In this document: piece after piece, positions 13,843-50,130 of the stretch
How the letters are laid out: each line of letters opens with the position of its first letter
Position numbering within the stretch: position 1 is the stretch's first letter
Source: an uncultured Rhodobacteraceae bacterium
GTDB taxonomy: Bacteria; Pseudomonadota; Alphaproteobacteria; Rhodobacterales; Rhodobacteraceae
Assembly: GCA_913043905.1 (NCBI GenBank)
Contig: CAJWNQ010000007.1
Coordinates: 391-64,390, forward strand
Length of the DNA: 64,000 nt
Direction: 5' to 3'
Made by a program: the position numbers and the translations under genes
Notes under the pieces: model-generated
Database searches by the model: none
What the model saw: only the letters and a program-made list of their open reading frames with translations
Told to the model about the DNA's origin: nothing

Positions 13843-13862
13843 TATATAATTGTTTGAATGAT

Positions 13863-21517: not shown

Positions 21518-23882
21518 AGACTCTCAATAAGGTTGATGGCGGCGTGCGCATGAGGCGAACAGCAGGCCACATGGCAGCTAAAAACGCAGCAATTAAAGCG
21601 TAACCTCCTAGTTCTAAATATTTAAGCGGAAACAGATACATTGGCAATTGCCATCCAAATGCCTCAACATTGATAATCGTTAGTAATATCCATGCAAGTG
21701 CGAGACCCATCGGAATAGCACAGACAAACACTATCCCAGCAAGCAAGACAGCACGCAATAGCTCTAACCACGCCAAACGGCGACGTGTGAGCCCTAATGC
21801 CCAGACAGGTGCAAGCTGTGGGACACGCAAATCAGCCAATGTCAGAAGGCTCATCAAAATGGCAAAGCTAGCAACGCCTAATGTTAAAACATTTAAAGCC
21901 GATGTTACTACAAACGTTCTCTCAAACACTTCAAGTGATAGTGCTTTTATTCCCACCTGGTTAATAATTGCGTTATTTTTGATGCCAAGTGTATTCACAA
22001 TTTGCGTGCGTAAAAAAGATGCATCTTGAGTACGCACCCCAAACTTTGATGCGTAGAGGTTTGGATATAAATCTTTAAAAGTTCGTTCAGTTATAATAAC
22101 CTGCCCTTGTGGATTACCATAATCACCGACCACTCCCGCAATAGGTAGTATTAAATCACGGTTCACTTGCACCAAATTTCCAACCCATAGGTCTGCACGT
22201 CGTGCAAATTGTTCATTGACAACAACCGCCTTGCCACTCTCAATGATATCCCATGCATTAAGAGTATTATCTAAAAAAATCCAATTATTTCGGTAGGTTT
22301 GGCCGACACGGATGCCATATAGATCTACAGGCAAGTCGGCTATTACAACTTGTGTTGTAAGTAAGGGCAAAACCTCGATCTGGCGGTTCATTAAAAATAT
22401 TTCTAATGCAGCACTTTGGTTAGCTGTTTCTACTTCCACGAAGAGCTCTGGCGCAAGCCTTTGATCAAGAAATTCTATAAAGGTTTGCCGAAAGCTTGAT
22501 ACCATAGTTGAGACACCAATATTGGCTGCGACTGCTAGTAAAAGAGCTATAAGCGCAAGACTAAGGCCTGGTAGTTGCTGTCTGGTATCAGCCCAGAACC
22601 ATACCCAAACTGGTGCAACAGTATACTTTTGAACCACAGTTAGAATGCCTCCCAATAGGGGGGGTAAAGCCAATGCTGCACCAACCAGCAAACACCCCAG
22701 TAAAATAAACCCCGCCAACAAGCCTTCCAAAATCAAGGCTAATGGTACTGTGGAAAATAACAGTGTAATGGCTATAATTAATTGCAATCGAAACCGTGAC
22801 CCAGTTGCAATAACCCATGCACGAGGCTTAGCACTTGCTAAAAGTGGCATTTGTATAATCTGCCAGATCCGTGATGAAAGTGCTAGTGCTGTCCCAATTA
22901 ATGCAAGTATCATACCTGATAACCACCAAGATGCACGTAATTCGAGTGTACCTGAGATTTGCGCGCCATAAAGGCCCTTCAATGTAGCAGCAACATCTGG
23001 TAGCAAGAAAGCGGCAATAAAATAACCCAAGGCAATACCAAACCCCGCCCCAATAACAGCTAAAGTCATCATCTCAAGAGTAATCAGCGAAATAAGGGTA
23101 CGCATTGGCACGCCAAGTGAGCGAATAGTACGGATCATGCCCCGCCTTTGCTCAAATGCTAAACCAATAGTGCTGTTTACTATAAATAAACCAACAGCAA
23201 AACTTAACAGGCCAAAGGCAGTCAAATTCAAATGAAAGCTACTCGTAAGTTGTGCAACATTCGTTACTGTATGTGCAGATTGAACCCGTAAGTTGGGCGC
23301 TATCATACTTAGACTTGGCTGGGTAATAGGCTGGTTTGGCAACAAAATGAGGTGGGTCAAATCATCCCGCTTTAGCATCCTTTGAACAAGGCCAATGTCA
23401 CCTATGGCTATGCCCGGTGCAATACTTGTATCCACTGTAACATTAGCCAACATAGCAACTTTAAGCGCGGTTTCTTCATTTGCAAGTAAGGTATCGTAGG
23501 TAATCCCAGATGGCTCTTTAGCTAAATTAGGTAATCCTGTAGCAGAAGTCACAAGATCAATACCGAAGAGGCGTACATCGTTGATCCGCGCGTCAATTAC
23601 CGGTGAGACTAGCCAACCTGATTTTCTAAGCAAAACATAAACATCTTGTGGAATGCGGTTACCTTGCTTTGGGATCAATAGGTCATACTGGCCCTCACCT
23701 AATGTTTTGGCCGCCGCATCGTAGCTAGCGCGGGCTTCCGAATTAATAGCCTGCACCCCAGACCAAAGTGCCGTGGCTAAGGCAAGACCTGCTAAATATG
23801 CGAATAATTGAACCGGATTACGCCACCAATGAGATAAGAGTGCCCTCAGGCACCAGGTGGTCATACCAAAAAACCATTGCAA
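21501..23882 (-). CDS. FtsX-family ABC permease with duplicated 4-TM modules (YbbP/AttFG-like, MacB superfamily)
   Basis: 793 aa, two FtsX-type TM bundles separated by large extracytoplasmic domains. An alternative start at 23864 gives an ATGA overlap with the ATPase stop. Confidence 0.85.
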   Translation of the reverse strand: MQWFFGMTTWCLRALLSHWWRNPVQLFAYLAGLALATALWSGVQAINSEARASYDAAAKTLGEGQYDLLIPKQGNRIPQDVYVLLRKSGWLVSPVIDARINDVRLFGIDLVTSATGLPNLAKEPSGITYDTLLANEETALKVAMLANVTVDTSIAPGIAIGDIGLVQRMLKRDDLTHLILLPNQPITQPSLSMIAPNLRVQSAHTVTNVAQLTSSFHLNLTAFGLLSFAVGLFIVNSTIGLAFEQRRGMIRTIRSLGVPMRTLISLITLEMMTLAVIGAGFGIALGYFIAAFLLPDVAATLKGLYGAQISGTLELRASWWLSGMILALIGTALALSSRIWQIIQMPLLASAKPRAWVIATGSRFRLQLIIAITLLFSTVPLALILEGLLAGFILLGCLLVGAALALPPLLGGILTVVQKYTVAPVWVWFWADTRQQLPGLSLALIALLLAVAANIGVSTMVSSFRQTFIEFLDQRLAPELFVEVETANQSAALEIFLMNRQIEVLPLLTTQVVIADLPVDLYGIRVGQTYRNNWIFLDNTLNAWDIIESGKAVVVNEQFARRADLWVGNLVQVNRDLILPIAGVVGDYGNPQGQVIITERTFKDLYPNLYASKFGVRTQDASFLRTQIVNTLGIKNNAIINQVGIKALSLEVFERTFVVTSALNVLTLGVASFAILMSLLTLADLRVPQLAPVWALGLTRRRLAWLELLRAVLLAGIVFVCAIPMGLALAWILLTIINVEAFGWQLPMYLFPLKYLELGGYALIAAFLAAMWPAVRLMRTPPSTLLRVFASER

Positions 23883-36922: not shown

Positions 36923-37951
36923 ATGGCAAATCTAGCTCAGCGTCTTATCGACAATCTTCCAAAGGCAGAACTACACCTCCACATTGAAGGAACACTAGAG
37001 CCTGAAATGATGCTAATTTTAGCTAAGCGCAATGGGGTTACACTGCCTTATGAAACAGTGGAAGATGTCCGAAATGCATATCAGTTTGATTGCCTTCAAG
37101 ATTTTCTTGACCTTTATTACTTAGGCATGTCCGTACTTCTTACAGAGAAAGATTTTTATGATTTAACATGGGCTTACTTGGAACGGGTTCATACCGATCG
37201 GTTAACACATGTGGAAATGTTTTTTGACGCCCAAGCACACACGGATCGAGATGTCGCATTTGAGACGGTACTAGGGGGTATCACAACTGCTCTAGAACAG
37301 GCGCGCAAAGAGTTTGGAATAACATCGAAATTAATTATGTGCTTCCTGCGGCATCTCCCCGAAGAACAGGCATTTGAGGCGCTTGAATGTGCCTGTAAGC
37401 ACAAAGAGCATATTTTTGGCGTTGGATTGGACAGTGCTGAAAAAGGAAATCCACCTAGTGCCTTTGCTCGAGTGTTTGAGGCGGCACGAGAGAAAGGGTT
37501 CGTACCTGTTGCTCACGCTGGTGAAGAGGGGACGGCAGAAAATGTAAGGGAAGCATTAGATGTCCTGAAAATCGAGCGCATAGATCATGGGAATCATGCG
37601 CTAGACGACCCTGCCCTGACGCAGCGCTTGGCCAAACAACAGACACCTCTTACTATGTGTCCAATTTCTAATTGGCGACTAAAAGGGATCCCATCACTAT
37701 CGGTAAGCCCAGTGAAAAAGGCCCTTGATGCAGGTTTATTGGTGACAGTAAATTCAGATGATCCCTCATATTTTGGCGGATATTTAAATGATAACTACCG
37801 AGCGGTTCACGAACATCTAGGGTTATCTGAGAAAGAAATAATACAATTGGTAAAAAATTCGTTTGCAGGTTCGTTTCTGAGCGATAGTGAAAAGCAAAGT
37901 CAGTTGGATAAAGTTGACCAACAAATTGGCACACAGATAGGCCGTAAATAA
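36923..37951 (+). CDS. Adenosine/adenine deaminase-family amidohydrolase, adenine-deaminase (ADE) subtype
   Basis: LPKAELHLHIEGTLEPEMM (metal-binding HxH), ..HAGEEG.., ..VNSDDPSYFGGYL... The HLHIEGTLEP form is the one I associate with the adenine-deaminase-type clade rather than E. coli Add. Confidence 0.8.
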   Translation: MANLAQRLIDNLPKAELHLHIEGTLEPEMMLILAKRNGVTLPYETVEDVRNAYQFDCLQDFLDLYYLGMSVLLTEKDFYDLTWAYLERVHTDRLTHVEMFFDAQAHTDRDVAFETVLGGITTALEQARKEFGITSKLIMCFLRHLPEEQAFEALECACKHKEHIFGVGLDSAEKGNPPSAFARVFEAAREKGFVPVAHAGEEGTAENVREALDVLKIERIDHGNHALDDPALTQRLAKQQTPLTMCPISNWRLKGIPSLSVSPVKKALDAGLLVTVNSDDPSYFGGYLNDNYRAVHEHLGLSEKEIIQLVKNSFAGSFLSDSEKQSQLDKVDQQIGTQIGRK

Positions 37952-37997
37952 TACTTTCAAAACTAATAATTGAAACGATAAACTGATGAATTGAAAC

Positions 37998-39092
37998 ATG
38001 AACAATCCTTTTACAAACCCACCAATAAAACCCGACACGCAGGACGGTCATTATGACCACGCCGAACTTGGGTTGGCCAATCGCAACTCAGGCACATTGT
38101 TGGAAACCCTAGCACTGGATATTACACCTTCCGGAGCACATTATCTGCTGACCCATTTCGACACTCCTATCTTGGATCCTAATATTCATCGATTGCAGTT
38201 TGAAGGTGCTTTTGCCAACCCGTTTGAAATGAATATGAACCAAATCCGTAGTCTGCCCCAGATCACGATACCTGTGACACTTGAATGCGCAGGAAACGGG
38301 CGGGCGGGCCTTTCTCCACGCCGATATTCAATGCCCTGGGGGGTTGAAGCAGTGGGCACATCAGAATGGATTGGAACACCACTTGCGCCACTGATTGCTC
38401 AGGCAAGTCCAAAATCTGATGTTGTTGAAATCTCTTTTACCGGGGCTGATTACGGATATGACGATGGAGTTGGACATTACTTTGGCCGTAGCTTAACCCT
38501 TGATCAACTTGGTACGCTTGATGTTATTTTAGCATACGGAATGAATGGCCAACCGCTCTTACCCCAGCACGGTGCTCCACTCCGAATTGTAGTACCAGGA
38601 TGGTATGGGATGGCATCAGTTAAATGGTTAGATAGAATTGGAGCACTGACCCAACCTTATGATGGTTATCAGCAGATCCGCACGTATCGTTTCAAGGAGA
38701 GCGCTGAAGACGAAGGTCGGCCTGTCACCCATATAAGAGTAAAGTCGTTGATGGTTCCCCCGGGTGTGCCCGATTGGCTCAGCCGAGTGCGCTGTGTGGA
38801 AGCGGGAGACGTACATATTCAGGGACGGGCATGGTCTGGATTAGGCCGTACAATTACCAAAGTAGAGTTTGCTGCAAATGGAACTTGGCAAGAGGCTAAA
38901 CTGAAAGAGCGCAAAGGCAAATTTGCCTGGACTGGATGGGAGCATACTTGGAGCGCTGAACCTGGCAAATACGTTTTGCAGTGCCGAGCCACAGACGAAA
39001 CAGGCGCAATTCAGCCAATCAATCCGCCTTGGGACCTCTCCGGCTTTGGCAACAATGCTGTCCAGTCCGTTCGCGTCTTTGTGAAGGCCTAA
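37998..39092 (+). CDS. Sulfite-oxidase-fold molybdopterin oxidoreductase (Mo-binding + dimerisation domains), no signal peptide
   Basis: TLECAGNGR (Mo-ligand Cys motif), GAPLRIVVPGWYGMASVKWL, and a C-terminal Ig-like domain (..QGRAWSG..). Confidence 0.8.
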   Translation: MNNPFTNPPIKPDTQDGHYDHAELGLANRNSGTLLETLALDITPSGAHYLLTHFDTPILDPNIHRLQFEGAFANPFEMNMNQIRSLPQITIPVTLECAGNGRAGLSPRRYSMPWGVEAVGTSEWIGTPLAPLIAQASPKSDVVEISFTGADYGYDDGVGHYFGRSLTLDQLGTLDVILAYGMNGQPLLPQHGAPLRIVVPGWYGMASVKWLDRIGALTQPYDGYQQIRTYRFKESAEDEGRPVTHIRVKSLMVPPGVPDWLSRVRCVEAGDVHIQGRAWSGLGRTITKVEFAANGTWQEAKLKERKGKFAWTGWEHTWSAEPGKYVLQCRATDETGAIQPINPPWDLSGFGNNAVQSVRVFVKA

Positions 39093-39164: not shown

Positions 39165-40709
39165 TTAATTAATTCTCTTCATCCAATAGCCACCCGCTTC
39201 ATCTTGGACTTCCTTTAAGCGGTTGGACCATATATTTGCTTCAATTTCTGGTAGTTTATTTTTGAGTGCTTCTACTTTTTCAATTATATAATTAGCTCTT
39301 ACATCACCATTAGATTTAGCAATAAGTGCCCAAAAATACGCACTCTCATATGATTTTGGACTACTGTTACCTGTTAAGTAACCTCGAGCTAAAGAATAGA
39401 ATTGTGGTTCATCCTTATTTTTTGTTTCTTTAAAATTAGTTGTTTCTTGTTGTAACTGAATTATTTCTGAAAGGCTAAGTTGCTTTTCTATAGTATTCAA
39501 ATAAGTCGGTGCATTTTTATTTCCTTGAGATCCCATTTTTTGAGCTACTATATACGCATCACTGAAGCTGCCTTCAGATAGGTATAAATCAATCAACATC
39601 TCATTAGCCTTTTCATGGCCATTTGAAGCTAAATACTCAAATATTTTCCTAGATAAGTTTGAATTCTTTATTGTGCCAATGCCACTATTAAAAGAAATCC
39701 CCAATTCAAATAATTTTTTTGTTTCAAATCCAGAAAGATTACCATTTAGTATTTTATCTAAATCAGATTTAGAAACATGCTTTGATTGTTTAGCGTTATT
39801 TACAGAAATAACAGGATTTAACCTAATATATGTTAAGTTTGGGTTTTGGAAAATTTCATAGTCCAGATTTACTCCATCTGCAGATGAAATTTGAGTGGAA
39901 ATTGTTATAGACTTAGGCTCCTCTATAAAGTCATCAACAGCCTGAGCTACTTGCCCAGATATTTTATCTACCAAATTTTGATTTAAAATATTTTTTAATT
40001 CTTGCGCAAGAAATAGAGATACACCGGTTCCAGCAATTCCACTTTGAACAAATTGCTTGGGTAATTGTTTAGATATATTTTCCCAAAGACCATTGTTTTC
40101 AAATCTTACATGCAAAGCCTGCAGTTTAGCAACGAATGTAAGGTCTGAATTGGTTGCAACAGAAAAATAGCCCAAATCAGCACCCATTGTAAAACTTACT
40201 GAATCTTGCAACTCACCATATAAAGCAAATGTAGTGGCTGCTGATTTATATTCATGCCCAATATCAATTTTTAAAAATGGAATATTTATATTTGAAATTC
40301 CAGATAAAGAAAGCATTGCACGTGTTTCAAGTGGAAAGCAAAATTGATTTATTTCAAGGTCAGATACTCCAATTGAAAATTGTTCAGAAGATAAGTTTTC
40401 ATTACGGGTGCCTGATATATTTAATGCCCCCATATCAATTTCGCATCCGTCTAATGCCTCAAGTGAAAAAGGTATAATCTTTAGCCCAGAGACAAAAAAA
40501 GTTTCTAAATTTGGATCGTACCTAACATCCTCATAACTGATCTCAGCAAATGACCTAGCTGTTGAAACACCAATCTCAAATAATCGATTTGATATTTTAT
40601 TTATTATTTTTATTGGATCTATGGATAAGCCTTCAGCAGACGCACTGGTGGAAACACTTAAAATCAACAACACTGATATTATTTTTGAAAATCTATAAAT
40701 TATTTTCAT
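39165..40709 (-). CDS. Large secreted hypothetical protein with C-terminal Sel1/TPR-like repeats
   Basis: 514 aa with a signal peptide. The C-terminal segments (..AYIVAQKMGSQGN.., ..ARGYLTGNSSPKSYESAYFWALIAKSNGD..) resemble Sel1 repeats. Confidence 0.65.
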   Translation of the reverse strand: MKIIYRFSKIISVLLILSVSTSASAEGLSIDPIKIINKISNRLFEIGVSTARSFAEISYEDVRYDPNLETFFVSGLKIIPFSLEALDGCEIDMGALNISGTRNENLSSEQFSIGVSDLEINQFCFPLETRAMLSLSGISNINIPFLKIDIGHEYKSAATTFALYGELQDSVSFTMGADLGYFSVATNSDLTFVAKLQALHVRFENNGLWENISKQLPKQFVQSGIAGTGVSLFLAQELKNILNQNLVDKISGQVAQAVDDFIEEPKSITISTQISSADGVNLDYEIFQNPNLTYIRLNPVISVNNAKQSKHVSKSDLDKILNGNLSGFETKKLFELGISFNSGIGTIKNSNLSRKIFEYLASNGHEKANEMLIDLYLSEGSFSDAYIVAQKMGSQGNKNAPTYLNTIEKQLSLSEIIQLQQETTNFKETKNKDEPQFYSLARGYLTGNSSPKSYESAYFWALIAKSNGDVRANYIIEKVEALKNKLPEIEANIWSNRLKEVQDEAGGYWMKRIN

Positions 40710-41005: not shown

Positions 41006-41893
41006 TTAAAATTCTTGTAGCAACTTTTCAAGAGTATCAACGGCAGCTTCACCCTTAAGGCTATGTTTCCATAAGTTTTCAGTAACACTTTGGTGTAACT
41101 TAATGACCTCTCGAGCAGAGGTTATTGTCGCAACGCCAATTCTTACATTTGCAGAAGCACCTAATCTATAAGGACTAGTAGCTACTTGCGCATTAATACC
41201 TTTGCGAAGGATCTGAAAGCTGGTACCTGGCATAGAATCTTGCACCACTCCTATTTGGACACCAATTGGCTGCTCTTTAAGAAGAGAAATAACATTCCTA
41301 ACTTCCAAGACAGCTGCTTTTTTACGAGTATCAATTTTATTTGGATTTAAATTTGTACTTCCAACAAAGCCTGATCTAACAAATTGTTCAAGTTCCAAGG
41401 CTGAGATTAGAGCTATGATATTGGGTTTCCGTTTTTTAAACGCTTTTTTGCGACTAAGTAAAATTTCAATTAATTGAGATATTGAACTTTCCAGCCCCCC
41501 CCTGTTTGCAGCACTATCTGGCACACTTTCAAGTAACACTTGAGGAAGCAGTTCATCATAACTGTCTGATGTCAATAAATATGGAACAGGACCAAACAAA
41601 ACTGTAATCTGGTCTGCTTCAGCCTCAATTTGTCTGAGGCGTTCAAAAAATGTAACTGCTGAAGCAATATTTTCAGATCCAACACCAAAAAGTGAGGCAA
41701 GTGAAACATCCAGTAAATCTGCAATTTTACCAAGTGCATCAACACGAATGGGTTTTCCTGCTTCATACCTATAAATTGATGCTATAGAAATCCCAGTTTT
41801 CTTTGCAACATCTTCTGGAGATAATCCCATCCCCAAACGATAAGATTTTAATCTGTTACCAATTTCAGAGATCATTTGGAACTGTGAGGTCAT
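41006..41893 (-). CDS. XRE-family HTH transcriptional regulator with ~220-aa C-terminal (effector?) domain
   Basis: IGNRLKSYRLGMGLSPEDVAKKTGISIASIYRYEAGK = Cro/C1-type HTH. It is divergent from the TRAP/pyr operon. Confidence 0.85.
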   Translation of the reverse strand: MTSQFQMISEIGNRLKSYRLGMGLSPEDVAKKTGISIASIYRYEAGKPIRVDALGKIADLLDVSLASLFGVGSENIASAVTFFERLRQIEAEADQITVLFGPVPYLLTSDSYDELLPQVLLESVPDSAANRGGLESSISQLIEILLSRKKAFKKRKPNIIALISALELEQFVRSGFVGSTNLNPNKIDTRKKAAVLEVRNVISLLKEQPIGVQIGVVQDSMPGTSFQILRKGINAQVATSPYRLGASANVRIGVATITSAREVIKLHQSVTENLWKHSLKGEAAVDTLEKLLQEF

Positions 41894-41968
41894 TTTAATA
41901 TATTTCTAAATTTATTATATGAATAACATAATAAAAACTTCTTTTACTGTATAGTCATATCTTATAAT

Positions 41969-41986
41969 TTTATCAAATTTGATAAA
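41969..41986. promoter_or_regulatory. Perfect 18-bp palindrome TTTATCAAATTTGATAAA, candidate operator for the XRE regulator
   Basis: Exact dyad in the 151-bp divergent intergenic region. It begins immediately 3' of a perfect TATAAT (41963-41968) and is 4 nt upstream of TTGACT (41991-41996). Confidence 0.5.
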
Positions 41987-42044
41987 TTTCTTGACTCTTT
42001 CACATTACTGGGCTCTTTTTCTTCTATTAACAGTGGAGGAAAAA

Positions 42045-43058
42045 ATGAAAAATAAATTTAAGATTAGCCGACAACGATTATCTACAATTGCCCTATGTGC
42101 TTTAGCATTTACATCTAACCCCGCTCTGGCACAGGACTTCGTAGCAAGAATTGGGCACCTAGAGTCACCCCAACAAAGCCGACATGTTCATCTTGAACGA
42201 GTGGCTGGATTAGTCTCAGAACGAACTGGCGGCGCAGTTGAATTCCAACTTTTCCCGCAAGCCCAGCTAGGAAACCAACGAGTAATGACAGAAGGCGTTC
42301 AATTAGGGACATTAGAAGCGACCGTTTCGCCAGCAGCCTTTCTTGGCGGTTTTAATTCAGCCATATCTATATTGGATATCCCCTACTTAATGCCAGCAGA
42401 TTCAGCAAAGGCCCAGGCTTTACGTGAGGGCCCTTTTGGAGATGCATTGCTTGAAAGCTTTAGCAGTAAGGGTGTCGTTGGTGTAGCTTGGTGGCCAAAT
42501 GGAATGAAAAACTTTACTTCAAATAAGCCTCTAAATAACATTGCAGCATTTGCAGATCAAAAGTTTCGTGTGATGGACTCAAAAATCTTAATTGAACAAT
42601 TTAATGCACTTGGCGCATCTGCTATAGCATTACCATTTGGCGAATTATATACATCTTTGCAAACTGGAGTTGTCGACGGACAAGAAAACCCTCTTGATAC
42701 TATTCTTCGTATGAAGTTTTTTGAGGTCCAAGATTACCTAGTAATTTCAGAGCATGGCGCAATGGAAGACCTCGTTCTTTTTAATCCAACCTGGTGGAAT
42801 AGCCTTCCAGATGAATATCAAGGCATTATCAAAGATGCGTTTAACGAAGTTGTTCCTGATTTGATTGTTCACAAGGGAGAGGCCGTAAAAGGCGCACTTG
42901 ATGCAATTGCGAAAAGTGACATAAACATTCGGACAGCTTCTGCCGATGAGCGAAGCGCATTCCGTGATGCTATGTATGATGGTTCAGCCGCTGCATACAT
43001 CGATCGTGCCGGAGATGCAGGCCAAAAGCTTATCGATATATATACAGCGAACCATTAA
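42045..43058 (+). CDS. DctP-family TRAP transporter substrate-binding protein (carboxylate-type)
   Basis: The ATG at 42045 is preceded by GGAGGA. Signal peptide present. The conserved DctP features FRVMDS (carboxylate-binding Arg region) and LQTGVVDGQENP are present. Confidence 0.9.
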   Translation: MKNKFKISRQRLSTIALCALAFTSNPALAQDFVARIGHLESPQQSRHVHLERVAGLVSERTGGAVEFQLFPQAQLGNQRVMTEGVQLGTLEATVSPAAFLGGFNSAISILDIPYLMPADSAKAQALREGPFGDALLESFSSKGVVGVAWWPNGMKNFTSNKPLNNIAAFADQKFRVMDSKILIEQFNALGASAIALPFGELYTSLQTGVVDGQENPLDTILRMKFFEVQDYLVISEHGAMEDLVLFNPTWWNSLPDEYQGIIKDAFNEVVPDLIVHKGEAVKGALDAIAKSDINIRTASADERSAFRDAMYDGSAAAYIDRAGDAGQKLIDIYTANH

Positions 43059-43160
43059 AAAAGATTTTAATGTAGCCAGGCCTACCAAAAATAGGCCTGG
43101 TGAAAGTTTTATTTAGTTCATGAGACTTAATCTCTTTGCAGGTGATTAAAGGAAAATACA

Positions 43161-43670
43161 GTGAAATTATTATTTTACATACGCCTAGCAGAGCGGTCAT
43201 TTTTAGTAGCACTATTCTTAGCAATGGTAGTACTTTTTTTTGGTAATGTTATCGCCAGAGAAATAGGTGGAACATTTGCAAGCAAATTTGCTTGGATAGA
43301 GGAAGCCGTGAGGTTCATGAATATATTTTTAGTATTTATAGCACTTGGGCTTGCTTTGGAAAAAGGTCGCCATGTTGGAATAGATACGCTTCGAGACAGA
43401 TTACCCAAAAATCTAAGAAAGTCTCTTCTAAAAATTATTGATGCCACAGGTTTTTTCTTTGCAATCTACCTCTCATGGCTTGGAATTGGTCTTGTTAAAT
43501 TCGTCCTAATGACAGGCCAAAGAAGTCCCACGCTAGATATTCCTGTAGGTTGGGTTTATTCTGCACCAGTAATTGGCTTTGGCCTCTTAGCGCTACGATT
43601 TGCACTAAGCTTCTTTGGCTACATAGACCGCTTTACCATATATGATTCGAATGTGGAGGCTGAGCAATAA
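43161..43670 (+). CDS. TRAP transporter small permease (DctQ)
   Basis: 169 aa, 4 TM. GTG start preceded by AAAGGA. Positioned between dctP and dctM. Confidence 0.85.
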   Translation: MKLLFYIRLAERSFLVALFLAMVVLFFGNVIAREIGGTFASKFAWIEEAVRFMNIFLVFIALGLALEKGRHVGIDTLRDRLPKNLRKSLLKIIDATGFFFAIYLSWLGIGLVKFVLMTGQRSPTLDIPVGWVYSAPVIGFGLLALRFALSFFGYIDRFTIYDSNVEAEQ

Positions 43671-44950
43671 TGCTTTTTTTAATTATTGGTTTAGCCGCGA
43701 TTTTGCTTATTCTTGGATTTGAAATGTTTCTTGTGTTGGGAATACCTGCACTTGCAACTAAAGAAGCTTTTTATGGAAATATTCCAGATCTAGCAGTTAT
43801 TCAGAAGATTTTTGGTGGAATTGATCACACCACACTTCTTGCAATTCCATTTTTTATATTTGCCGCCCACCTTATGGGCTCTGGGCAAATATCAAAAAAC
43901 TTAACAGGCCTAGTTAGATCACTTATTGGCCATACTCGCGGAGGTATGGGCCATACAGTAATTGGCGCATCAATGGCCTTTGGGTCTGTGTCAGGATCAG
44001 CACCAGCAACGGTGGCAGCCATGGGCAAAATGGTATACCCAGAAATGCGCAAAAATGGTTTCTCAGAAAAATTTAGCCTTGGTCTGCTTGTTGCCAGTGC
44101 AGAAACAGCACTTTTAATTCCTCCTTCTATTACATTTATTATCTATGGCTGGATGACGGGTACATCAATTGCTAAACTTTTTGCTGGCGGCTTAGCTGTT
44201 GGTATATTTTTGGGCTTAGCCTTTGCTATTATGGTATGGATTGAAGCCAAACGCTGCGGAATCCAGCCTGATAAAAAAACAACTTGGGGTGAAAGATATA
44301 CAGCAACCAGAAAGGCAGTATGGGCACTTGGCATGCCATTTATTATCCTAGGTGGTATATACTCTGGCACAATAACACCAACTGAAGCTGCCGCTGTGAG
44401 CGTTGTCTATGCTATTTTTGTTGAGATGGTAATTTATCGTAATTTTAGTTTTAAAGATTTGGTAAATATTACAGAACAAAGTGCTATAGCGACTTGTGTG
44501 ATATTTATCCTGCTCGCGATGGGTGGTCTAATTTCATTTTATGTCACACTAGCTCAGGTTCCAACGCAAATTACAGACTTTTTAACCGCTATAGATGCTG
44601 GGCCATTCCAGTTTCTCTTAGCTGTAAATATATGCTTTCTAATTGCAGGTATGTTTATTGATCCAAACTCTGCATTACTTATTCTTGTCCCCCCCCTCTT
44701 CCCAGTAGCAACAGCCATGGGTGTCGATCCTGTTCACTTTGGCATGATAGTAACTCTTAATATTAGCCTTGGAATGATCACACCACCTTTTGGCCTAGAC
44801 ATATTCGTTGCATCTTCCACTTTAAACAAACCTGTCCTTAACATTATAAACGGTGTCTGGCCGTTCGTATTTGTCAACATTTTAGTTTTAATGGTTGTTA
44901 CTTACGTACCCCAAATATCACTTTTTATTCCACAATTAATCTTTGGTTGA
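43670..44950 (+). CDS. TRAP transporter large permease (DctM)
   Basis: 426 aa, about 12 TM. ATGA-type overlap with dctQ. Confidence 0.9.
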   Translation: MLFLIIGLAAILLILGFEMFLVLGIPALATKEAFYGNIPDLAVIQKIFGGIDHTTLLAIPFFIFAAHLMGSGQISKNLTGLVRSLIGHTRGGMGHTVIGASMAFGSVSGSAPATVAAMGKMVYPEMRKNGFSEKFSLGLLVASAETALLIPPSITFIIYGWMTGTSIAKLFAGGLAVGIFLGLAFAIMVWIEAKRCGIQPDKKTTWGERYTATRKAVWALGMPFIILGGIYSGTITPTEAAAVSVVYAIFVEMVIYRNFSFKDLVNITEQSAIATCVIFILLAMGGLISFYVTLAQVPTQITDFLTAIDAGPFQFLLAVNICFLIAGMFIDPNSALLILVPPLFPVATAMGVDPVHFGMIVTLNISLGMITPPFGLDIFVASSTLNKPVLNIINGVWPFVFVNILVLMVVTYVPQISLFIPQLIFG

Positions 44951-44962
44951 GAGAGGCACATT

Positions 44963-45808
44963 ATGACAATTCAACAATTGCCAAACATAGAAAATGCTTC
45001 TCCAGCCACCAAAAATATTTACGAAGTGGACACATTTGTAAAAAGTAACACAGCAATTACTGAAGAGTACCGCCTCCTCATTCTTGAAGCACCAAAAACT
45101 ATACTAAATTGTCAACCAGGACAATTTTTTCACCTTCAATGTCCAGTTACAAGGTCCCATCAACCTTATTTGCGACGTCCAATGAGTATTTACAGTTACT
45201 CTCAACAAGATTGCGAACTTCAGTTTCTCTTCAAGGTAACGGGTGAAGGAACTCAGGCTCTTTCAGAACTTAAAAATGGTGATACCCTTAACGTCCTAGG
45301 CCCCCTTGGTGTTGGATTTTCTATAGAGCCTGAGTGGGAAAATCTTTTATTGCTCGCTCGCGGTGTCGGCCTAGCAACTCTAGCACCGCTCGCTCAAGAG
45401 GCAAACAGACTGGGGAAAAAACTAACAGCAATCTGTTCGGCTCGTTCACCAAATGCTCTTATGTCTATAGATTACTTTAAAGATATGGGAGCAGATGTGA
45501 TCACCATTACTGATACAGAGGGTACCTCTACATTAGATAATATGAGACATATCATTGAGTTAAAAATTTCCCAAGGCGCCGTCGACGTAATGTATACATG
45601 TGGCTCAAATCGCATGCTGAAATTGCTTCAAGAAATTGGAAATTTACACTCACTTCCTGGAGAAATAGCTCTAGAACAGCAAATGGCTTGTGGTTTGGGC
45701 ATGTGCCAGTGCTGTGTACGCTCCTTCAACCGATGCGGGGTTATAACCCAAGAACGTGTGTGCCGGGAAGGCCCTGTCTTTAAGATTCAAGAAGCAATGC
45801 CATGGTAA
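44963..45808 (+). CDS. pyrK: Dihydroorotate dehydrogenase (class 1B) electron-transfer subunit, FAD/[2Fe-2S] (PyrK-like)
   Basis: Ferredoxin-reductase-type fold (RRPMSIYS FAD motif, GPLGVGF NAD motif) and the C-terminal cluster motif CGLGMCQCCV....C. Confidence 0.8.
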   Translation: MTIQQLPNIENASPATKNIYEVDTFVKSNTAITEEYRLLILEAPKTILNCQPGQFFHLQCPVTRSHQPYLRRPMSIYSYSQQDCELQFLFKVTGEGTQALSELKNGDTLNVLGPLGVGFSIEPEWENLLLLARGVGLATLAPLAQEANRLGKKLTAICSARSPNALMSIDYFKDMGADVITITDTEGTSTLDNMRHIIELKISQGAVDVMYTCGSNRMLKLLQEIGNLHSLPGEIALEQQMACGLGMCQCCVRSFNRCGVITQERVCREGPVFKIQEAMPW

Positions 45809-46746
45809 ACCTTAAGACAAAAATAGGTGAATTAATCCTTAAAAACCCGATCATGCCAGCTTCGGGAACCTTCTCTGAAGACCTTGCAGAAGTACTAGAC
45901 CTTAATAAACTTGGCGCACACGTAACAAAGACAATTACAGAAGAAAAACGTTGTGGAAATCCTTCCCCTCGCGTGTGCGAAGTAAGTGGTTCAATGTTGA
46001 ATTCGATCGGTATTCCCTCAAAAGGAATTGAGTATTTTATTGATACAGTTATTCCTTTTTATAGTCAGTATAATGTTCCTCTTATTGTTAGTATTTCCGC
46101 ACAAACTTCAGATGGGTTTGCACGAATTTGTGAACGCGTTTCAGTACCTGGGGTAGATGCTATTGAAGTTAATATATCATGTCCAAATATTGAAGAAGAC
46201 GGCAAGGCATTTGCCATGCGCCCATCCACAACTCAAAGCGTTATGACTAAATTACGTAGTGCTACAGATCTTCCTCTCTGGGCAAAATTGAGTCCAAATA
46301 CTGGTGAAACCATTGAGGTGGCTATGGCAGCTGAAGAATCAGGGGCAGATGCACTTGTCGTCTCAAATACAATGCTATCAATGGCGATCGATATTCATAG
46401 TCGTAAGCCAAAACTTGGGAACCTTATGGGGGGGCTTTCTGGGCCATCTCTAAAGCCGATAGCACTACGCATGGCTTATCAGTGCGCCAAATCAGTCAGT
46501 ATTCCAATTATTGGTTGTGGTGGCATTTCAACAGTTGAAGATATTATTGAATATTTAATTGCAGGCGCTACCGCTATTCAAGTTGGCACTGCAACTTTTA
46601 TTAATCCAAATGCAATGGTCACATTACTTGCCGACCTCGAGAACTTTCTACAAAAGCAAAACATACAGAATATTTCAGATTTAATTGGATCAGTTCGAGA
46701 TGAAGATGCAACTGATGACGTTGTATTCATGGAAACAGCACCATGA
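45802..46746 (+). CDS. pyrD: Dihydroorotate dehydrogenase class 1B catalytic subunit (PyrD-like; DPD/PreA-like is the alternative)
   Basis: NPIMPASGTF, the active-site NISCPNI (class-1 Cys base), and the FMN-binding GCGGIST..D. It overlaps pyrK by 7 nt. Confidence 0.8.
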   Translation: MVNLKTKIGELILKNPIMPASGTFSEDLAEVLDLNKLGAHVTKTITEEKRCGNPSPRVCEVSGSMLNSIGIPSKGIEYFIDTVIPFYSQYNVPLIVSISAQTSDGFARICERVSVPGVDAIEVNISCPNIEEDGKAFAMRPSTTQSVMTKLRSATDLPLWAKLSPNTGETIEVAMAAEESGADALVVSNTMLSMAIDIHSRKPKLGNLMGGLSGPSLKPIALRMAYQCAKSVSIPIIGCGGISTVEDIIEYLIAGATAIQVGTATFINPNAMVTLLADLENFLQKQNIQNISDLIGSVRDEDATDDVVFMETAP

Positions 46747-48020
46747 ATGTAAAACACAAATTTACGATAGATACTGCGGAATTATTGCTTGCAAATTCAT
46801 GGTTTACAGCTGTTGAATACATGAGCCCCGATGAAGAAGGTGTCACCCGACCTGCATTTTCAGCGATGGAAACCCAAGTTCTTGATTACCTAGCAGACCA
46901 AGCAAGGTCTGCAGGGTTAGCAGTCACATTTGATGCAGGTCAAAATGCAATTTTCTCTTTGCCAGAAGATGCAAATGTTGAAGAATATGTACTAGTTGGT
47001 TCACATGTTGATACTGTTCCCATGGGCGGGAACTTCGATGGCTTAGCAGGCGTACTGGCAGGGTTACTCTGCCTCATTAGAGCTCAAGCCAATAATATCA
47101 AATTCAAACGTCCAGTAAAAGTTATTGCCATGCGTGGTGAAGAAAGTGCCTGGTTTGGGCCATGCTATATAGCTTCTAAAGCTCTTTTGGGTGTTCTTTC
47201 GGGCGCTGAACTAACTTCACCCCATAAAAATGATGGCCGAACACTTAGTAGTCACATGTCAGATGTTGGTATAAATATGGAACCAATTATTGCAGGGAAA
47301 CCATTACTAAAAAAAGAAAAAGTTCTTGAATACATCGAGTTACACATTGAACAAGGACCACTCTTAATTGGAAAAAATATGCCAGCTGCAGTAGTATCTG
47401 CTATTAGAGGTAATATTCGCCATAAAAAAGTTAGGTGCATTGGCGAAGCTGGACATTCTGGGGCAGTACCTCGAGCATTTCGCAAAGATCCCGTACTTGC
47501 AATGGCTAACTTACTCAATCGTTTAGACGAAAGCTGGCTGACAATTCTTCAAAAAGGTGATGATTTAGTGCTCACATCTGGAATTGTCTCTACAGATCCC
47601 AAAAGACACGCCATGTCGCGAATACCAGACGAAGTTGGTTTTAGTTTAGATATTCGGAGCCAAAGTCAAGATGTTTTAGACGCTATGACTATTCTTCTAA
47701 AAGAAGAAATTAATGACATCGAGTGTGAACGTCATGTCAAGTTTGATCTTGATCCTGCTCATATTACTCCACCTGCACTTATGGATACTGAGGTTGTAAA
47801 AAATCTTGAAAAGGCAATGTCGCGAATTGGTTTAAAACCTACAACTATGGCGTCAGGTGGCGGCCATGATGCAGCAATATTTGCAAATGCAGGCATTCCT
47901 ACAGCAATGATTTTTGTCAGAAATCAAAATGGTTCCCATAACCCTCTAGAAGCTATGAAAACTGAAGACTTTCTTGTTGGCACCTCAATTATTTATGAAC
48001 ACCTCACAGGGGCTAACTAA
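46743..48020 (+). CDS. M20-family Zn amidohydrolase of the N-carbamoyl-L-amino-acid hydrolase / allantoate amidohydrolase / beta-ureidopropionase group
   Basis: GSHVDTVPMGGNFDGLAGVLAGL is the hallmark of the AmaB/HyuC/AllC group. The gene is 425 aa with 4-nt overlaps on both sides. Confidence 0.85.
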   Translation: MNVKHKFTIDTAELLLANSWFTAVEYMSPDEEGVTRPAFSAMETQVLDYLADQARSAGLAVTFDAGQNAIFSLPEDANVEEYVLVGSHVDTVPMGGNFDGLAGVLAGLLCLIRAQANNIKFKRPVKVIAMRGEESAWFGPCYIASKALLGVLSGAELTSPHKNDGRTLSSHMSDVGINMEPIIAGKPLLKKEKVLEYIELHIEQGPLLIGKNMPAAVVSAIRGNIRHKKVRCIGEAGHSGAVPRAFRKDPVLAMANLLNRLDESWLTILQKGDDLVLTSGIVSTDPKRHAMSRIPDEVGFSLDIRSQSQDVLDAMTILLKEEINDIECERHVKFDLDPAHITPPALMDTEVVKNLEKAMSRIGLKPTTMASGGGHDAAIFANAGIPTAMIFVRNQNGSHNPLEAMKTEDFLVGTSIIYEHLTGAN

Positions 48021-49078
48021 TGATCCAAACAGAAGTTCTATTGAACATGCCTGATGATATGCACCTTCACCTTAGGGATGGAAACATATTAAATGGGGTC
48101 GTTGGCTATAGTGCCCGCAACTTTGGGCGCGCAATTATTATGCCAAACTTAGTACCACCAATTTCTACGTCTGATGCTGCATTAGATTACAGGCGTCGCA
48201 TATTAAATGCACTTGACCATAAATCAACATTTCAGCCTTTGATGACATTGTACCTAACAGAATCTACAACATCCCATGAAATAGAAAAGGCTGCAGCCTC
48301 ACCATTCATCAAAGCTGTGAAGCTTTATCCAGCGGGTGCTACAACAAATTCAGAGAGTGGTGTTCGTAATATAAAAAAATCCTATCATTTATTCAGGAAA
48401 ATGGCTGAGCTTGACTTGCCATTACTTGTTCATGGTGAGGTTACAGATCCAGATATAGATATTTTTGATCGCGAGGAAGTATTTATAGACAGAATTCTTG
48501 AACCATTAAGACGCGAGATTCCTGATCTTCGAATAGTTATGGAACATGTTACAACAAAAAATGGAGTGGATTATGTAAAAAATTCAAAAAAGAATTTATT
48601 TGCAACCTTAACTACACACCATTTAATGCTGAACAGAAATGCAATGTTAGTTGGCGGTCTCCGCCCTCACTACTATTGCTTACCAATATTAAAACGTGAA
48701 AAACACCGCGCAGCCTTGCGCTCAGCAGCAACATCAGGTGATCCACGATTTTTCCTCGGAACAGATTCCGCTCCACACCTCACACATACTAAAGAAAGTG
48801 CATGCGGTTGTGCTGGAGTATTTTCAGCAGTAAATTCAATGGGCTGCTTGGCCACAGTTTTTGAAGAAGAAAATGCGCTCTCTAAACTTAATAAATTCAC
48901 AGCTGAAAATGGAGCTAACTTCTATGGACTAAAGGTAAACAAAAATAAAATTCGTTTAATTCGAAAGTCAAAAGTAGCAATTTTTCCAGATACCATTAGT
49001 ATAGGAAATGAGACTATAACTGTGTTTGACCCTGGCATACCAATTTATTGGCACATCGATTATATGATAAACGAATAA
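48020..49078 (+). CDS. pyrC: Dihydroorotase, homodimeric (E. coli PyrC) type
   Basis: It aligns by eye along its whole length with E. coli PyrC: DDMHLHLRDG, GRAIIMPNL.PP, AVKLYPAGATTNS, LPLLVHGEVT..DIDIFDRE, LRPHYYCLPILKR, FLGTDSAPH, KESACGCAG. Confidence 0.92.
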   Translation: MIQTEVLLNMPDDMHLHLRDGNILNGVVGYSARNFGRAIIMPNLVPPISTSDAALDYRRRILNALDHKSTFQPLMTLYLTESTTSHEIEKAAASPFIKAVKLYPAGATTNSESGVRNIKKSYHLFRKMAELDLPLLVHGEVTDPDIDIFDREEVFIDRILEPLRREIPDLRIVMEHVTTKNGVDYVKNSKKNLFATLTTHHLMLNRNAMLVGGLRPHYYCLPILKREKHRAALRSAATSGDPRFFLGTDSAPHLTHTKESACGCAGVFSAVNSMGCLATVFEEENALSKLNKFTAENGANFYGLKVNKNKIRLIRKSKVAIFPDTISIGNETITVFDPGIPIYWHIDYMINE

Positions 49079-49096
49079 GCTACCGAAAGAACAAAA

Positions 49097-49789
49097 ATGT
49101 CGAGTGAATATCCATCACGAAAATTAATAGCAGAAACTACTGCAAAAATGTTACTTGAAATAGACGCTATTCATTTCAATTCAGATAAACCATTTACATT
49201 TACATCTGGAATTGTGAGCCCAGTATACATAGATTGTCGTAAAATAATATCATATCCACATATTCGTGAAATGATTACAAATTTTTCAGTTTCAGTATTA
49301 TTGCGTGATGTTGGATTTGAACAATTTGATGCAATTGCGGGTGGAGAAACTGCTGGTATTCCATTTGCTGCATGGATTGCTAGAGAAATGGGTCTTCCAA
49401 TGCAATACGTTCGAAAAAAACCTAAAGGTTTTGGACGAAATGCACAAATCGAAGGCGTTCTATCAGAAAAACAACGGGTCTTGCTTGTGGAAGATCTCAC
49501 TACCGACGGCGGCAGCAAAATTAATTTTTGTAAAGCTTTGCGCAAGGCTGGTGCACAAGCAGATCACACCATTGTTATATTTTATTATGATATATTTGAA
49601 GAAACTCGCACAAAATTATCATCTGAAGGCATAACATTACACTCACTTGCGACTTGGTGGGATGTTCTTGCTGTTTGCAAATCTGAAAACCACTTTGATA
49701 CACGAACACTTAAACAAGTAGAAACTTTTCTGAATCATCCTCTAGAATGGTCAGGAAAAAATGGTGGTGCAACCTCCATCACAATGTAA
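49097..49789 (+). CDS. pyrE: Orotate phosphoribosyltransferase (long, alphaproteobacterial-type)
   Basis: SPVYIDCRK, AGGETAGIPFAAW, the PRPP motif VLLVEDLTTDGGS, and the C-terminal PLEWSGKNGG. Confidence 0.9.
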   Translation: MSSEYPSRKLIAETTAKMLLEIDAIHFNSDKPFTFTSGIVSPVYIDCRKIISYPHIREMITNFSVSVLLRDVGFEQFDAIAGGETAGIPFAAWIAREMGLPMQYVRKKPKGFGRNAQIEGVLSEKQRVLLVEDLTTDGGSKINFCKALRKAGAQADHTIVIFYYDIFEETRTKLSSEGITLHSLATWWDVLAVCKSENHFDTRTLKQVETFLNHPLEWSGKNGGATSITM

Positions 49790-49800
49790 GGAAAATACAC

Positions 49801-50130
49801 ATGATGTTTGATGAAATACTCCAAACTCTATCTGAAAATGGTAAAAGCGGTCGCGCATATGGCAAAGTTATTGAACTTACATCAACCGCAATGAAAGAAG
49901 ATCCAAGCCATGCAACCGGCTATCTATTGTTGAGTGTCTTAGCTGAACGCTTCATGGAAGGTACTGGTCGTCTACCAATAACTACATTGCAAGTAGAAAA
50001 TGCCTTTGAAGATTTTTCTAAAAATGCAAATTCTTTAAAGGATGCCTATGCATCAGGAGATTTTAAATCTGTTGAGGCAGCACTAAATAAAGTTTCTCAT
50101 GCTTGTATAAAACTATCTGGAGCTGAATAA
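49801..50130 (+). CDS. Small hypothetical protein, last gene of the TRAP/pyr cluster
   Basis: 109 aa starting at ATG 49801, 11 nt after the pyrE stop. No motif recognised. Confidence 0.5.
   Translation: MMFDEILQTLSENGKSGRAYGKVIELTSTAMKEDPSHATGYLLLSVLAERFMEGTGRLPITTLQVENAFEDFSKNANSLKDAYASGDFKSVEAALNKVSHACIKLSGAE

Follow-up and report, generated by a model that had tools for sequence, protein, structure and literature searches.

A TRAP transporter–PyrK–PyrD–carbamoylase–PyrC–PyrE gene cluster as a candidate orotate-utilisation operon of a marine roseobacter

Results

Gene order and features of the locus

The subject of this study is a gene cluster in a stretch of 64,000 nucleotides (nt), hereafter called the window, of contig CAJWNQ010000007.1 from an uncultured Rhodobacteraceae bacterium (assembly GCA_913043905.1). 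In this cluster the gene for an XRE-family regulator is divergent from genes that encode a tripartite ATP-independent periplasmic (TRAP) transporter (DctP, DctQ and DctM), a PyrK-like protein, PyrD, an M20-family amidohydrolase, PyrC, PyrE and a protein of 109 amino acids (aa), called U109 here. It is interpreted below as a candidate operon for the uptake and use of orotate; the functional assignments were inferred from homology and gene context.

A map of the open reading frames (ORFs) confirmed ten of them, the regulator on the minus strand and the nine others together on the plus strand (Table 1), and the same genes, the ORF of 109 aa included, were called independently by gene callers on metagenome contigs. 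All ten genes of an initial annotation of this DNA, with their families and coordinates, were thus recovered by the ORF map, Pfam and NCBIfam. The tight spacing that it had described from dctQ onward was found as well, all junctions after dctQ being overlaps of 1–7 nt or gaps of 11–18 nt, and the distance between dctP and dctQ, which had been put at about 100 nt, measured 102 nt. The start of dctP was placed at ATG 42045, in agreement with gene callers and with the signal peptide; the ORF itself opens earlier, at TTG 41979. Several ORFs of 88–124 aa lie inside pyrE, the M20 gene and dctQ, at 49305–49634 (+), 49171–49545 (−), 47252–47518 (−) and 43175–43447 (−). The first of these, a second ORF of 109 aa, was rejected as a gene because it is an alternative frame within pyrE, and such alternative-frame and antisense ORFs within the three genes are almost certainly not genes. 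A scan of the window with Rfam revealed no RNA family, and folding of the sequence 3′ of the U109 gene gave no significant structure (z = −0.08).

Table 1. Genes and features of the locus in window coordinates, with family matches (bit scores and, where given, model cutoffs)
Feature	Position	Strand	Evidence
XRE-family regulator, 295 aa	41006–41893	−	HTH_3/HTH_31 match
Operator palindrome (predicted), 18 nt	41969–41986	strandless	perfect dyad between divergent start codons
DctP-type periplasmic binding protein, 337 aa, Sec signal peptide	42045–43058	+	PF03480, 267 bits
GC-rich hairpin in dctP–dctQ spacer	43075–43101	+	10-bp stem, 7-nt loop, U-rich tail
DctQ, small TRAP membrane subunit	43161–43670	+	PF04290, 107 bits
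DctM, large TRAP membrane subunit	43670–44950	+	PF06808, 383 bits; TIGR00786, 406 bits (cutoff 268)
PyrK-like FAD/2Fe-2S electron-transfer subunit	44963–45808	+	scores exceed the cutoffs of PF10418 and PF00970
PyrD, class 1B catalytic subunit, 314 aa	45802–46746	+	NF005574, 352 bits (cutoff 269)
M20 hydantoinase/carbamoylase-family amidase	46743–48020	+	TIGR01879, 278.6 bits (cutoff 204)
PyrC, class II (homodimeric, E. coli-type) dihydroorotase	48020–49078	+	TIGR00856, 439 bits (cutoff 293)
PyrE, orotate phosphoribosyltransferase	49097–49789	+	NF001729, 381.5 bits (cutoff 245); TIGR00336, 112.6 bits (cutoff 106.8)
U109, 109-aa protein, last gene	49801–50130	+	no family match (Pfam, NCBIfam, PDB)

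The binding protein DctP resembles an orotate-bound structure

The P, Q and M components of the TRAP transporter are encoded together and all scored above the Pfam cutoffs. In the Protein Data Bank (PDB) the best match of DctP was 4NN3 (E = 1.6e-128), followed at a large distance by the next entry (E = 3e-49). The two proteins are 62% identical over 321 aligned residues and 64% identical over the mature part, the signal peptide of DctP ending with ALA-QD. According to two citing papers, 4NN3 is Desal_2161 of Maridesulfovibrio salexigens with orotic acid bound, and citing papers name orotic acid among the new TRAP ligands that emerged from the 2015 EFI (Enzyme Function Initiative) screen (Vetting et al., 2015). 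It is reported to be the only TRAP solute-binding protein (SBP) that was crystallised with orotic acid. The pocket segments QLGNQR, KNFTS, FRVMDS, PFGELYT and ENPLD are identical between DctP and 4NN3. In those passages of the literature that deal with 4NN3, its Gln75 and Lys152 are described as the residues that set the orotate binder apart from hydroxy-acid-binding relatives; they correspond to Gln78 and Lys155 of the window DctP, which were invariant in 17 homologues. Arg175 of DctP, in FRVMDS, aligned with the arginine of the identical 4NN3 segment. The carboxylate-binding arginine is thus conserved, as had been recognised in the initial annotation. By these data DctP is an orthologue-level relative of 4NN3, and its prediction as an orotate receptor is strongly supported.

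The genes around the close relatives of 4NN3 point in the same direction. In Maridesulfovibrio, relatives with 94% and 88% identity to 4NN3 are encoded in loci that consist of a divergent XRE regulator and DctP-DctQ-DctM-M20-PyrC-PyrE, with PyrK-PyrD a few kb upstream in both. The M20, PyrC, PyrE and regulator proteins of these loci are 47–59% identical to those of the window, and U109 is absent from them. Because of this gene order, the structurally anchored orotate binder shares the operon type of the window. Two other genes were seen between the regulator and PyrK-PyrD in the Maridesulfovibrio loci, each in two of three: one for a MIF/tautomerase-family protein of 112 aa (L090, 8409–8747; L091, 3918–4256) and one for a U32 peptidase (L091, 1904–3880; L092, 6517–8496). 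From the similarity to 4NN3, the identical pocket and the Maridesulfovibrio operons together, DctPQM is very probably an importer of orotate, and the acidic, orotate-like substrate that had been guessed earlier for the transporter gains strong support.

The enzymes of the cluster

PyrD scored above the cutoff of TIGR01037 (314 bits versus 270) and aligned over its full length with the dihydroorotate dehydrogenase B (DHODB) PyrD structures 5UE9, 5KSW and 1EP1, with E values near 1e-71 and about half of the aligned residues identical. Its NISCPN segment, which contains the catalytic cysteine, was aligned with 5UE9. The partner of PyrD is PyrK-like and not GltD-like: its best PDB match was Lactococcus lactis PyrK (1EP3_B, E = 7e-26), with the cysteines of the C-terminal CGxGxCxxC...C pattern aligned. 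A classification of PyrD as a PreA or dihydropyrimidine dehydrogenase (DPD)-type enzyme was rejected, as the score against NF006183 was 136 bits versus a cutoff of 335, whereas the class 1B model NF005574 was matched well above its cutoff (Table 1). Only positions 5–319 of the 422-position PreA model were matched by PyrD, which is about 100 residues shorter than the model and thus too short to include a large additional domain at the C-terminus.

PyrC matched the dihydroorotases of Burkholderia and E. coli, 4LFY and 1J79, at E values of about 1e-111 to 1e-114 (1e-114 for 4LFY), and the signature motifs HLHLRD, KLYPAGATTNS, HGEV, EH and GTDSAPH were kept. In the M20 protein the motifs GSHxD, FDG, EE, HIEQG and GHDA aligned with those of 3N5F and 1Z2L; its nearest solved relatives are an L-carbamoylase and an allantoate amidohydrolase. 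The closest subfamily was PRK12891, with 384 bits versus a cutoff of 461. By these comparisons the M20 protein is predicted to belong to a distinct, uncharacterised subfamily of the N-carbamoyl-amino-acid amidohydrolases. With the signature motifs of their families intact, the enzymes look functional.

Class 1B dihydroorotate dehydrogenases (DHODs) are NAD-linked and are the class to which the enzyme of Clostridium oroticum belongs; Gram-negative bacteria usually have a class 2 enzyme. Since the orotate/dihydroorotate couple lies above that of NAD+/NADH, NADH can reduce orotate, and a quinone-linked class 2 DHOD cannot run in the direction of orotate reduction. Neutral to alkaline pH favours the hydrolysis of dihydroorotate, and the loss of the carbamoyl group is irreversible. 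On these general grounds the orotate-degrading direction would be thermodynamically sensible. PyrK-PyrD is, in our estimate, probably an orotate reductase, and the M20 protein is a candidate ureidosuccinase (N-carbamoyl-L-aspartate amidohydrolase, EC 3.5.1.7), an assignment that we consider likely, if slightly less so. Neither a gene nor a reference sequence for ureidosuccinase is known to us.

Conservation and mobility of the module

Relatives of DctP were collected by scanning one genome per species. This yielded 261 matching genomes, and gene content was counted in the 80 best of these, among which 70 loci had at least 8.5 kb of sequence downstream. PyrK, PyrD, M20 and the XRE regulator were each present in 60 of the 70 loci, PyrE in 57 and PyrC in 28. 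PyrC is thus an optional part of the module. The conservation of the neighbourhood across genomes, which had been proposed as a check, is thereby established, and together with the kept motifs the equal counts of PyrK, PyrD and M20 uphold the enzyme set (these three with PyrC and PyrE) that had been read from the window. The closest DctP among the species-representative genomes was 82% identical. The hosts belong to the Rhodobacterales, Hyphomicrobiales/Rhizobiales and Stappiaceae, with some Granulosicoccus and Desulfobulbales. One locus with a Granulosicoccus (Gammaproteobacteria) label (L010, JBLHMP010000015.1) was rejected as proof of transfer between classes, since another source labels it Paracoccaceae and its taxonomy is doubtful; the taxonomic labels of metagenome-assembled genomes are not always reliable.

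The module is mobile. Orthologues of the M20 protein matched 75 plasmid or chromid records, and in all six matches that were inspected the M20 gene adjoins PyrK-PyrD. The full module, with a divergent HTH regulator and DctPQM-PyrK-PyrD-M20-PyrE-hypothetical, is carried by the plasmids pNK_1 of Nitratireductor kimnyeongensis and pDY25-A of Pacificitalea manganoxidans. On a Roseomonas plasmid a LysR gene is divergent from PyrK-PyrD-M20-PyrE-hypothetical. Other variants have a different importer: a chromid of Variovorax paradoxus has the order porin-MFS-PyrK-PyrD-M20-PyrC-HTH-PyrE followed by a hypothetical protein of 108 aa, and Burkholderia RPE67 p1 has porin-MFS-PyrK-PyrD-M20 and no PyrE. A porin and an importer ahead of the enzymes are a hallmark of a catabolic operon.

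A relative of the M20 protein with about 45% identity is held by 53 Klebsiella plasmid records (K. pneumoniae, K. oxytoca, K. grimontii, K. michiganensis and K. quasipneumoniae) from milk, wastewater and clinical sources. The one such plasmid that was inspected is conjugative (L089, NZ_CP069904.1, 234218–239834) and carries, beside lacIZY, a divergent MFS gene and PyrK-like-PyrD-M20-PyrC-HTH followed by a hypothetical protein of 108 aa. This variant has neither TRAP transporter nor PyrE, and its proteins are 42–55% identical to those of the window. In 5,426 complete E. coli genomes no module of the Klebsiella type was found. A class 2 pyrD, together with pyrC and pyrE, is present on the chromosomes of Klebsiella, Variovorax and Burkholderia. 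The plasmid and chromid variants and the occurrence of a class 1B enzyme in class 2 hosts imply that the core of enzymes and regulator is an accessory unit which is combined with one importer or another.

The PyrKD encoded near the loci of the Desulfovibrionales and Desulfobulbales shares only 29–41% identity with that of the window and may be the class 1B enzyme of these anaerobes themselves. If so, the module would bring an NADH-linked reductase only to hosts that do not have one.

The regulator, a conserved dyad and the dctP–dctQ hairpin

The regulator consists of an N-terminal helix–turn–helix (HTH) domain (HTH_3, 45.8 bits) and a C-terminal domain of about 220 aa that belongs to an unknown family. 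Members of the regulator family on the Klebsiella and Variovorax replicons are 41–42% identical to it. An AlphaFold model based on an alignment of 23 sequences (pLDDT 80.6, pTM 0.71) showed the HTH and an alpha/beta domain of about 220 residues. Outside the HTH, neither a PDB sequence relative nor a fold relative (Foldseek) was found, and no Pfam domain was present in this part of any listed homologue.

Between the start codons of the regulator gene and dctP lies the sequence TTTATCAAATTTGATAAA, with the halves TTTATCAAA and TTTGATAAA and the core TATCA-N4-TGATA. The perfect palindrome that had been pointed out in the initial annotation is therefore present. It is situated 76 nt from the ATG of the regulator gene and 59 nt from that of dctP, and a TATAAT hexamer (41963–41968) occurs just upstream of it. 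The core was found twice in the window, versus 0.10 expected by chance. The second exact match (TATCATACCTGATA, 22908–22921) lies within the ORF of an FtsX-like permease (21501–23882) and is probably due to chance.

Evidence from other genomes for an operator is much stronger than these within-window statistics. Dyads of the form T[CA]TCA-N(2-10)-TGA[GT]A were searched for within 250 nt upstream of dctP. They were found in 49 of the 69 loci with the regulator and in none of the 13 without it, mostly as TCTCA-N4-TGAGA and mostly at −58 to −111. The background was 32 matches in 1.54 Mb, or 0.005 per 250 nt. Where the regulator gene comes first on the same strand, the dyad occurred at about −80 upstream of it (7 of 17 loci), and the Klebsiella promoter region contains two TATC-N6-GATA dyads. 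The palindrome in the window thus appears as one instance of a conserved predicted operator, and the operator that had been suspected from a single sequence is substantiated by the comparison across genomes. The regulator acts, we believe with considerable confidence, at this dyad. It is a probable sensor of the orotate pathway, and a probable repressor rather than an activator. The position of the dyad between the divergent start codons, with TATAAT just upstream, points to one site for both repression and autoregulation.

The dctP–dctQ spacer holds a hairpin (Table 1), and the fold of the segment 43050–43170 that contains it had a z-score of −3.0. Among 76 homologous dctP–dctQ spacers (L008–L088; median length 92 nt), 35 contained perfect stems of at least 8 bp that are unrelated in sequence. 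This indicates that the structure is conserved and the sequence is not. Within the operon the hairpin probably acts as an attenuator or stabilises the mRNA, so that more binding protein than membrane subunits would be made.

U109, a small conserved protein

A profile search found U109-like ORFs in 63 loci, those on the Nitratireductor, Pacificitalea and Klebsiella plasmids among them; the one of the Klebsiella plasmid was recovered in this way. U109 is present in essentially every locus with PyrKD and M20 and is thus far more constant than tblastn had indicated. The proteins are about 105 aa long and all-helical, with the pattern G13, AY, PD/E-AAA-LL-AA-FVD-QPL and LN-VA, and have no conserved cysteine or histidine. 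The family comprises 31 representatives at 50% identity, all of which stand alone except for one repetitive outlier of 883 aa, and an exhaustive search gave no informative fusion. U109 had no match in Pfam, NCBIfam or the PDB, and its single-sequence AF2 model was weak (pLDDT 59.5). Its constant presence, also in the Klebsiella variant that lacks the TRAP transporter and PyrE, suggests that U109 is a functional partner of the enzyme-plus-regulator core.

Surroundings of the cluster in the window

The GC content of the window is 41%, and the cluster shows neither a dip nor a rise. NCBI lists the identical regulator sequence under a metagenome-assembled genome of an Amylibacter sp., a genus of the roseobacter group within the Rhodobacterales. 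Of the assembly collection, 231 blocks, Tara Oceans samples among them, contained the exact M20 protein, and the gene order was always the same. The window contains no pyrimidine genes outside the cluster. Its other uptake systems are two amino-acid ABC transporters, a betaine-type ABC transporter, a TAXI-type TRAP system, MFS transporters and znuABC; further genes encode an adenosine deaminase, a molybdenum cofactor (Moco) oxidoreductase and assorted unknown proteins. The adenosine deaminase and the oxidoreductase, which is sulfite-oxidase-like and of the molybdopterin type, are encoded immediately upstream of the locus on the strand of the operon (36923–39092, +). The TAXI-type system (11763–14867, −) is unrelated to DctPQM and pairs a permease of 677 aa, a DctQM fusion, with a binding protein of the NMT1_3 type.

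Adjoining the regulator, a gene at 39165–40709 (−) encodes a secreted protein of 514 aa that had no Pfam match. Among the otherwise near-identical metagenome contigs L001, L003 and L005 its length was 514, 500 and 422 aa, which indicates a strain-variable gene. A variable island at strain level was seen about 7 kb from the operon, downstream of a beta-lactamase-like gene: in L006 (17127–21278), from the same population, the EamA/HsdM_N-fragment/AP-endonuclease block of L001–L005 is swapped for DehI, DUF3800 and an acetyltransferase. At the start of the window (1051–7004, +) the gene for a DUF1989-GcvT fusion of 778 aa precedes those for the ATPase, permease and OpuAC binding protein of an ABC transporter of the betaine/choline type. 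The GC content of this region is 0.48–0.53 versus 0.34–0.45 in the remaining window, and it may be a methylated-amine catabolic unit.

Discussion

The locus is best interpreted, with a probability of roughly 0.7, as an inducible orotate-utilisation operon of a marine roseobacter (Amylibacter) that combines import, NADH-linked reduction, ring opening and decarbamoylation with salvage through PyrE. External orotate would be captured in the periplasm by DctP and imported by DctQM. Part of it would be converted by PyrE to orotidine monophosphate (OMP), as salvage, and the remainder would be reduced to L-dihydroorotate by the NADH-linked class 1B PyrK-PyrD. Dihydroorotate would then be opened to N-carbamoyl-L-aspartate by PyrC, or by the housekeeping enzyme in hosts whose module has no PyrC. 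The M20 enzyme would split this product irreversibly into L-aspartate, CO2 and NH3, so that two usable nitrogens and a C4 skeleton would be gained for each NADH spent. The XRE-type regulator would bind the TATCA-N4-TGATA dyad between the two promoters and presumably acts as a repressor until a metabolite of the pathway binds to its C-terminal domain. The hairpin after dctP would probably increase the amount of binding protein relative to the membrane subunits, and U109 would be an obligatory, as yet unexplained, partner of the enzyme and regulator core.

Several observations weigh against this interpretation. For each of the four NCBIfam PyrK equivalogs the score of the PyrK-like protein fell far short of the cutoff, 137 versus 314 at best, and the protein has to be regarded as a divergent PyrK. 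The best PDB match of the M20 protein, the L-carbamoylase 3N5F, is distant (E = 9e-48), and the protein scored below every specific NCBIfam equivalog cutoff. AllC, the allantoate amidohydrolase (TIGR03176, 194 versus 598), and ErtE, the N-carbamyl-L-glutamate amidohydrolase (NF058540, 269 versus 520), were both rejected for it on these scores. Its substrate is therefore read from the gene context. PyrC is missing in 60% of the modules, which then depend on a housekeeping dihydroorotase. Ten of the 70 loci do not have the PyrKD-M20 set, seven of them being DctPQM alone and one DctPQM-PyrC-PyrE, which implies that the transporter does in some cases serve salvage only. Scans for sigma-70 promoters and intrinsic terminators between 40.7 and 50.6 kb gave no more matches than in shuffled sequences, and in the literature no biochemical, binding, growth or expression report on any member of the module was found.

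The loci without PyrKD and M20 bear on the possibility that the whole cluster serves salvage. Imported orotate would then be converted to uridine monophosphate (UMP) by way of PyrE and would be a source of pyrimidine, not of nitrogen or carbon, with PyrKD, PyrC and M20 acting as a safety valve or to balance pools, or being barely used. Orotate uptake for salvage is a known physiological use, by DctA in enterobacteria and by OroP in Lactococcus, and the presence of PyrE in 57 of the 70 loci as well as the stand-alone DctPQM loci and the DctPQM-PyrC-PyrE locus fit it. However, PyrK, PyrD and M20 occur in equal numbers of loci, a carbamoylase has no role in salvage, and five extra genes on a plasmid are implausible as a safety valve. 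Besides, the Klebsiella and Burkholderia variants keep a transporter with PyrKD and M20 and have no PyrE, so salvage cannot be the sole purpose of the module. We regard this explanation as unlikely. The DctA system of Salmonella and E. coli and the OroP system share orotate import followed by PyrE with the locus, but their transporters are of other families, and neither catabolic enzymes nor a dedicated regulator is linked to them.

PyrC and PyrE, and perhaps PyrKD, could also be the only copies of these enzymes in a streamlined genome, in an operon that mixes biosynthesis with the import of a late precursor, as was put forward as a first alternative in the initial annotation. PyrC and PyrE do score as full equivalogs of the biosynthetic enzymes, and the GC content of the cluster equals that of the rest of the window. 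The window PyrC is also closer to the PyrC of E. coli and Burkholderia (about 374–386 bits) than to that of the Klebsiella plasmid (318 bits), which suggests a recent recruitment from a housekeeping gene. As a general explanation this alternative is contradicted, since the module is carried by plasmids and chromids, moves between classes of Proteobacteria and brings a class 1B enzyme to taxa whose usual biosynthetic DHOD, as in Gram-negatives at large, is of class 2. Essential biosynthetic genes would be surprising in an operon that is repressed by a dedicated regulator through a conserved operator, and Ruegeria pomeroyi has its housekeeping pyrE and dihydroorotase as separate genes that are not linked. 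For the pyrC and pyrE of this particular genome the alternative keeps some standing, yet on the whole it is quite improbable. Least probable of all, and only a slight chance, is a different substrate (uracil or thymine, a hydantoin or a substituted orotate, the initial annotation having suggested another cyclic ureide) with PyrD as a DPD-type enzyme, PyrC as a dihydropyrimidinase or hydantoinase and M20 as a beta-ureidopropionase or L-carbamoylase: the chemistry formally parallels the reductive pyrimidine and hydantoin routes and the nearest solved relatives of M20 would suit it, but it is contradicted by the class 1B and PreA scores and the length of PyrD, by the score of PyrC as a homodimeric dihydroorotase, by the frequency of PyrE and by pocket segments identical to those of orotate-bound 4NN3.

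A catabolic orotate operon would have several counterparts among known systems. The reductive degradation of orotate was worked out in Clostridium oroticum by Lieberman and Kornberg in the 1950s and proceeds through an orotate reductase (a class 1B DHOD), a dihydroorotase and ureidosuccinase (EC 3.5.1.7). The same three chemical steps are predicted for the locus, with a dehydrogenase of the same class. The C. oroticum route was established by enzymology, in a Firmicute that is anaerobic; the hosts of the module are mostly aerobic Proteobacteria. To our knowledge no operon, transporter or regulator is known for the C. oroticum pathway; the module adds a predicted high-affinity importer, PyrE, a dedicated regulator and U109. 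The Pyd pathway (PydA/PreTA, dihydropyrimidinase and beta-ureidopropionase) follows the same logic of reduction, cyclic-amide hydrolysis and decarbamoylation with enzymes of homologous superfamilies, but its substrates are uracil and thymine and its enzymes are of other subfamilies, the PreA and dihydropyrimidinase models being below cutoff at the locus. In hyu clusters an M20 enzyme of the Amidase_hydantoinase family, of which the nearest structure 3N5F is an example, decarbamoylates an N-carbamoyl-L-amino acid. In contrast to these clusters the locus has neither hydantoinase nor racemase, its cyclic amidohydrolase is a dihydroorotase, and the similarity to 3N5F is distant. The Firmicute pyr biosynthetic operon unites the same enzyme families, pyrK-pyrD with pyrC and pyrE. 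The locus differs from it by the absence of pyrB, carAB and pyrF, by the presence of an importer, a predicted carbamoylase and a probable repressor, by its occurrence as a plasmid-borne module and, we infer, by the opposite direction of flux.

The Desal_2161 system of M. salexigens is the closest to the locus, with an SBP of the same family at the level of an orthologue, identical pocket motifs and the same type of operon. The known work on it concerns the binding protein and its ligand only, and its Desulfovibrionales loci have neither a PyrKD of the cluster type nor U109. The initial annotation had been aware of no TRAP-coupled locus of this kind. Since an orotate-binding TRAP SBP has been known from 2015, the locus type is not wholly undescribed, and the reductive chemistry of orotate (1950s) and the class 1B DHOD as the C. 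oroticum enzyme are known as well. The catabolic operon, on the other hand, was found nowhere in the literature searched, nor were U109, the regulator family with its operator, the variants in which the transporter is exchanged and the version on Klebsiella plasmids. Searches for a ureidosuccinase gene, an orotate reductase, an orotate-degradation gene cluster and orotate in combination with TRAP gave nothing relevant in that literature. The catabolic operon, the regulator, the operator and the ureidosuccinase candidate therefore appear undescribed.

That orotate catabolism in Proteobacteria has its genetic basis in this module, with all the gains that this would bring, we consider an even chance. 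If true, it would provide the first gene for the long-orphan ureidosuccinase, in a distinct M20 subfamily, and a dedicated catabolic lineage of class 1B 'orotate reductases' in bacteria that make their pyrimidines with a class 2 enzyme. It would also provide a new family of effector-sensing domains, fused to an XRE HTH and with a defined operator, and an obligatory protein of about 105 aa whose role is wholly unexplained. Orotate would become a public metabolite, rich in nitrogen, that is exchanged both in the sea and in niches associated with hosts, the module being abundant in ocean metagenomes and present on conjugative Klebsiella plasmids; a search of the literature on marine exometabolites was uninformative on orotate.

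The finding is an experimentally tractable lead and no surprise in principle. The locus and its approximately 260 relatives form a complete set for testing, made up of importer, reductase, ring-opening enzyme, decarbamoylase, salvage enzyme, regulator and operator, for which culturable hosts exist (Celeribacter, Nitratireductor, Variovorax and those of the Klebsiella plasmids), and two components, the sensor domain of the regulator and U109, are flagged for study. The proposed function would correct a likely mis-annotation of such genes as 'pyrimidine biosynthesis' or 'Zn-dependent hydrolase' and would explain the presence of a second, NAD-linked DHOD in Gram-negative bacteria that normally use class 2. 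For the abundant marine roseobacters it points to orotate as a nitrogen and carbon source that may be scavenged from their surroundings.

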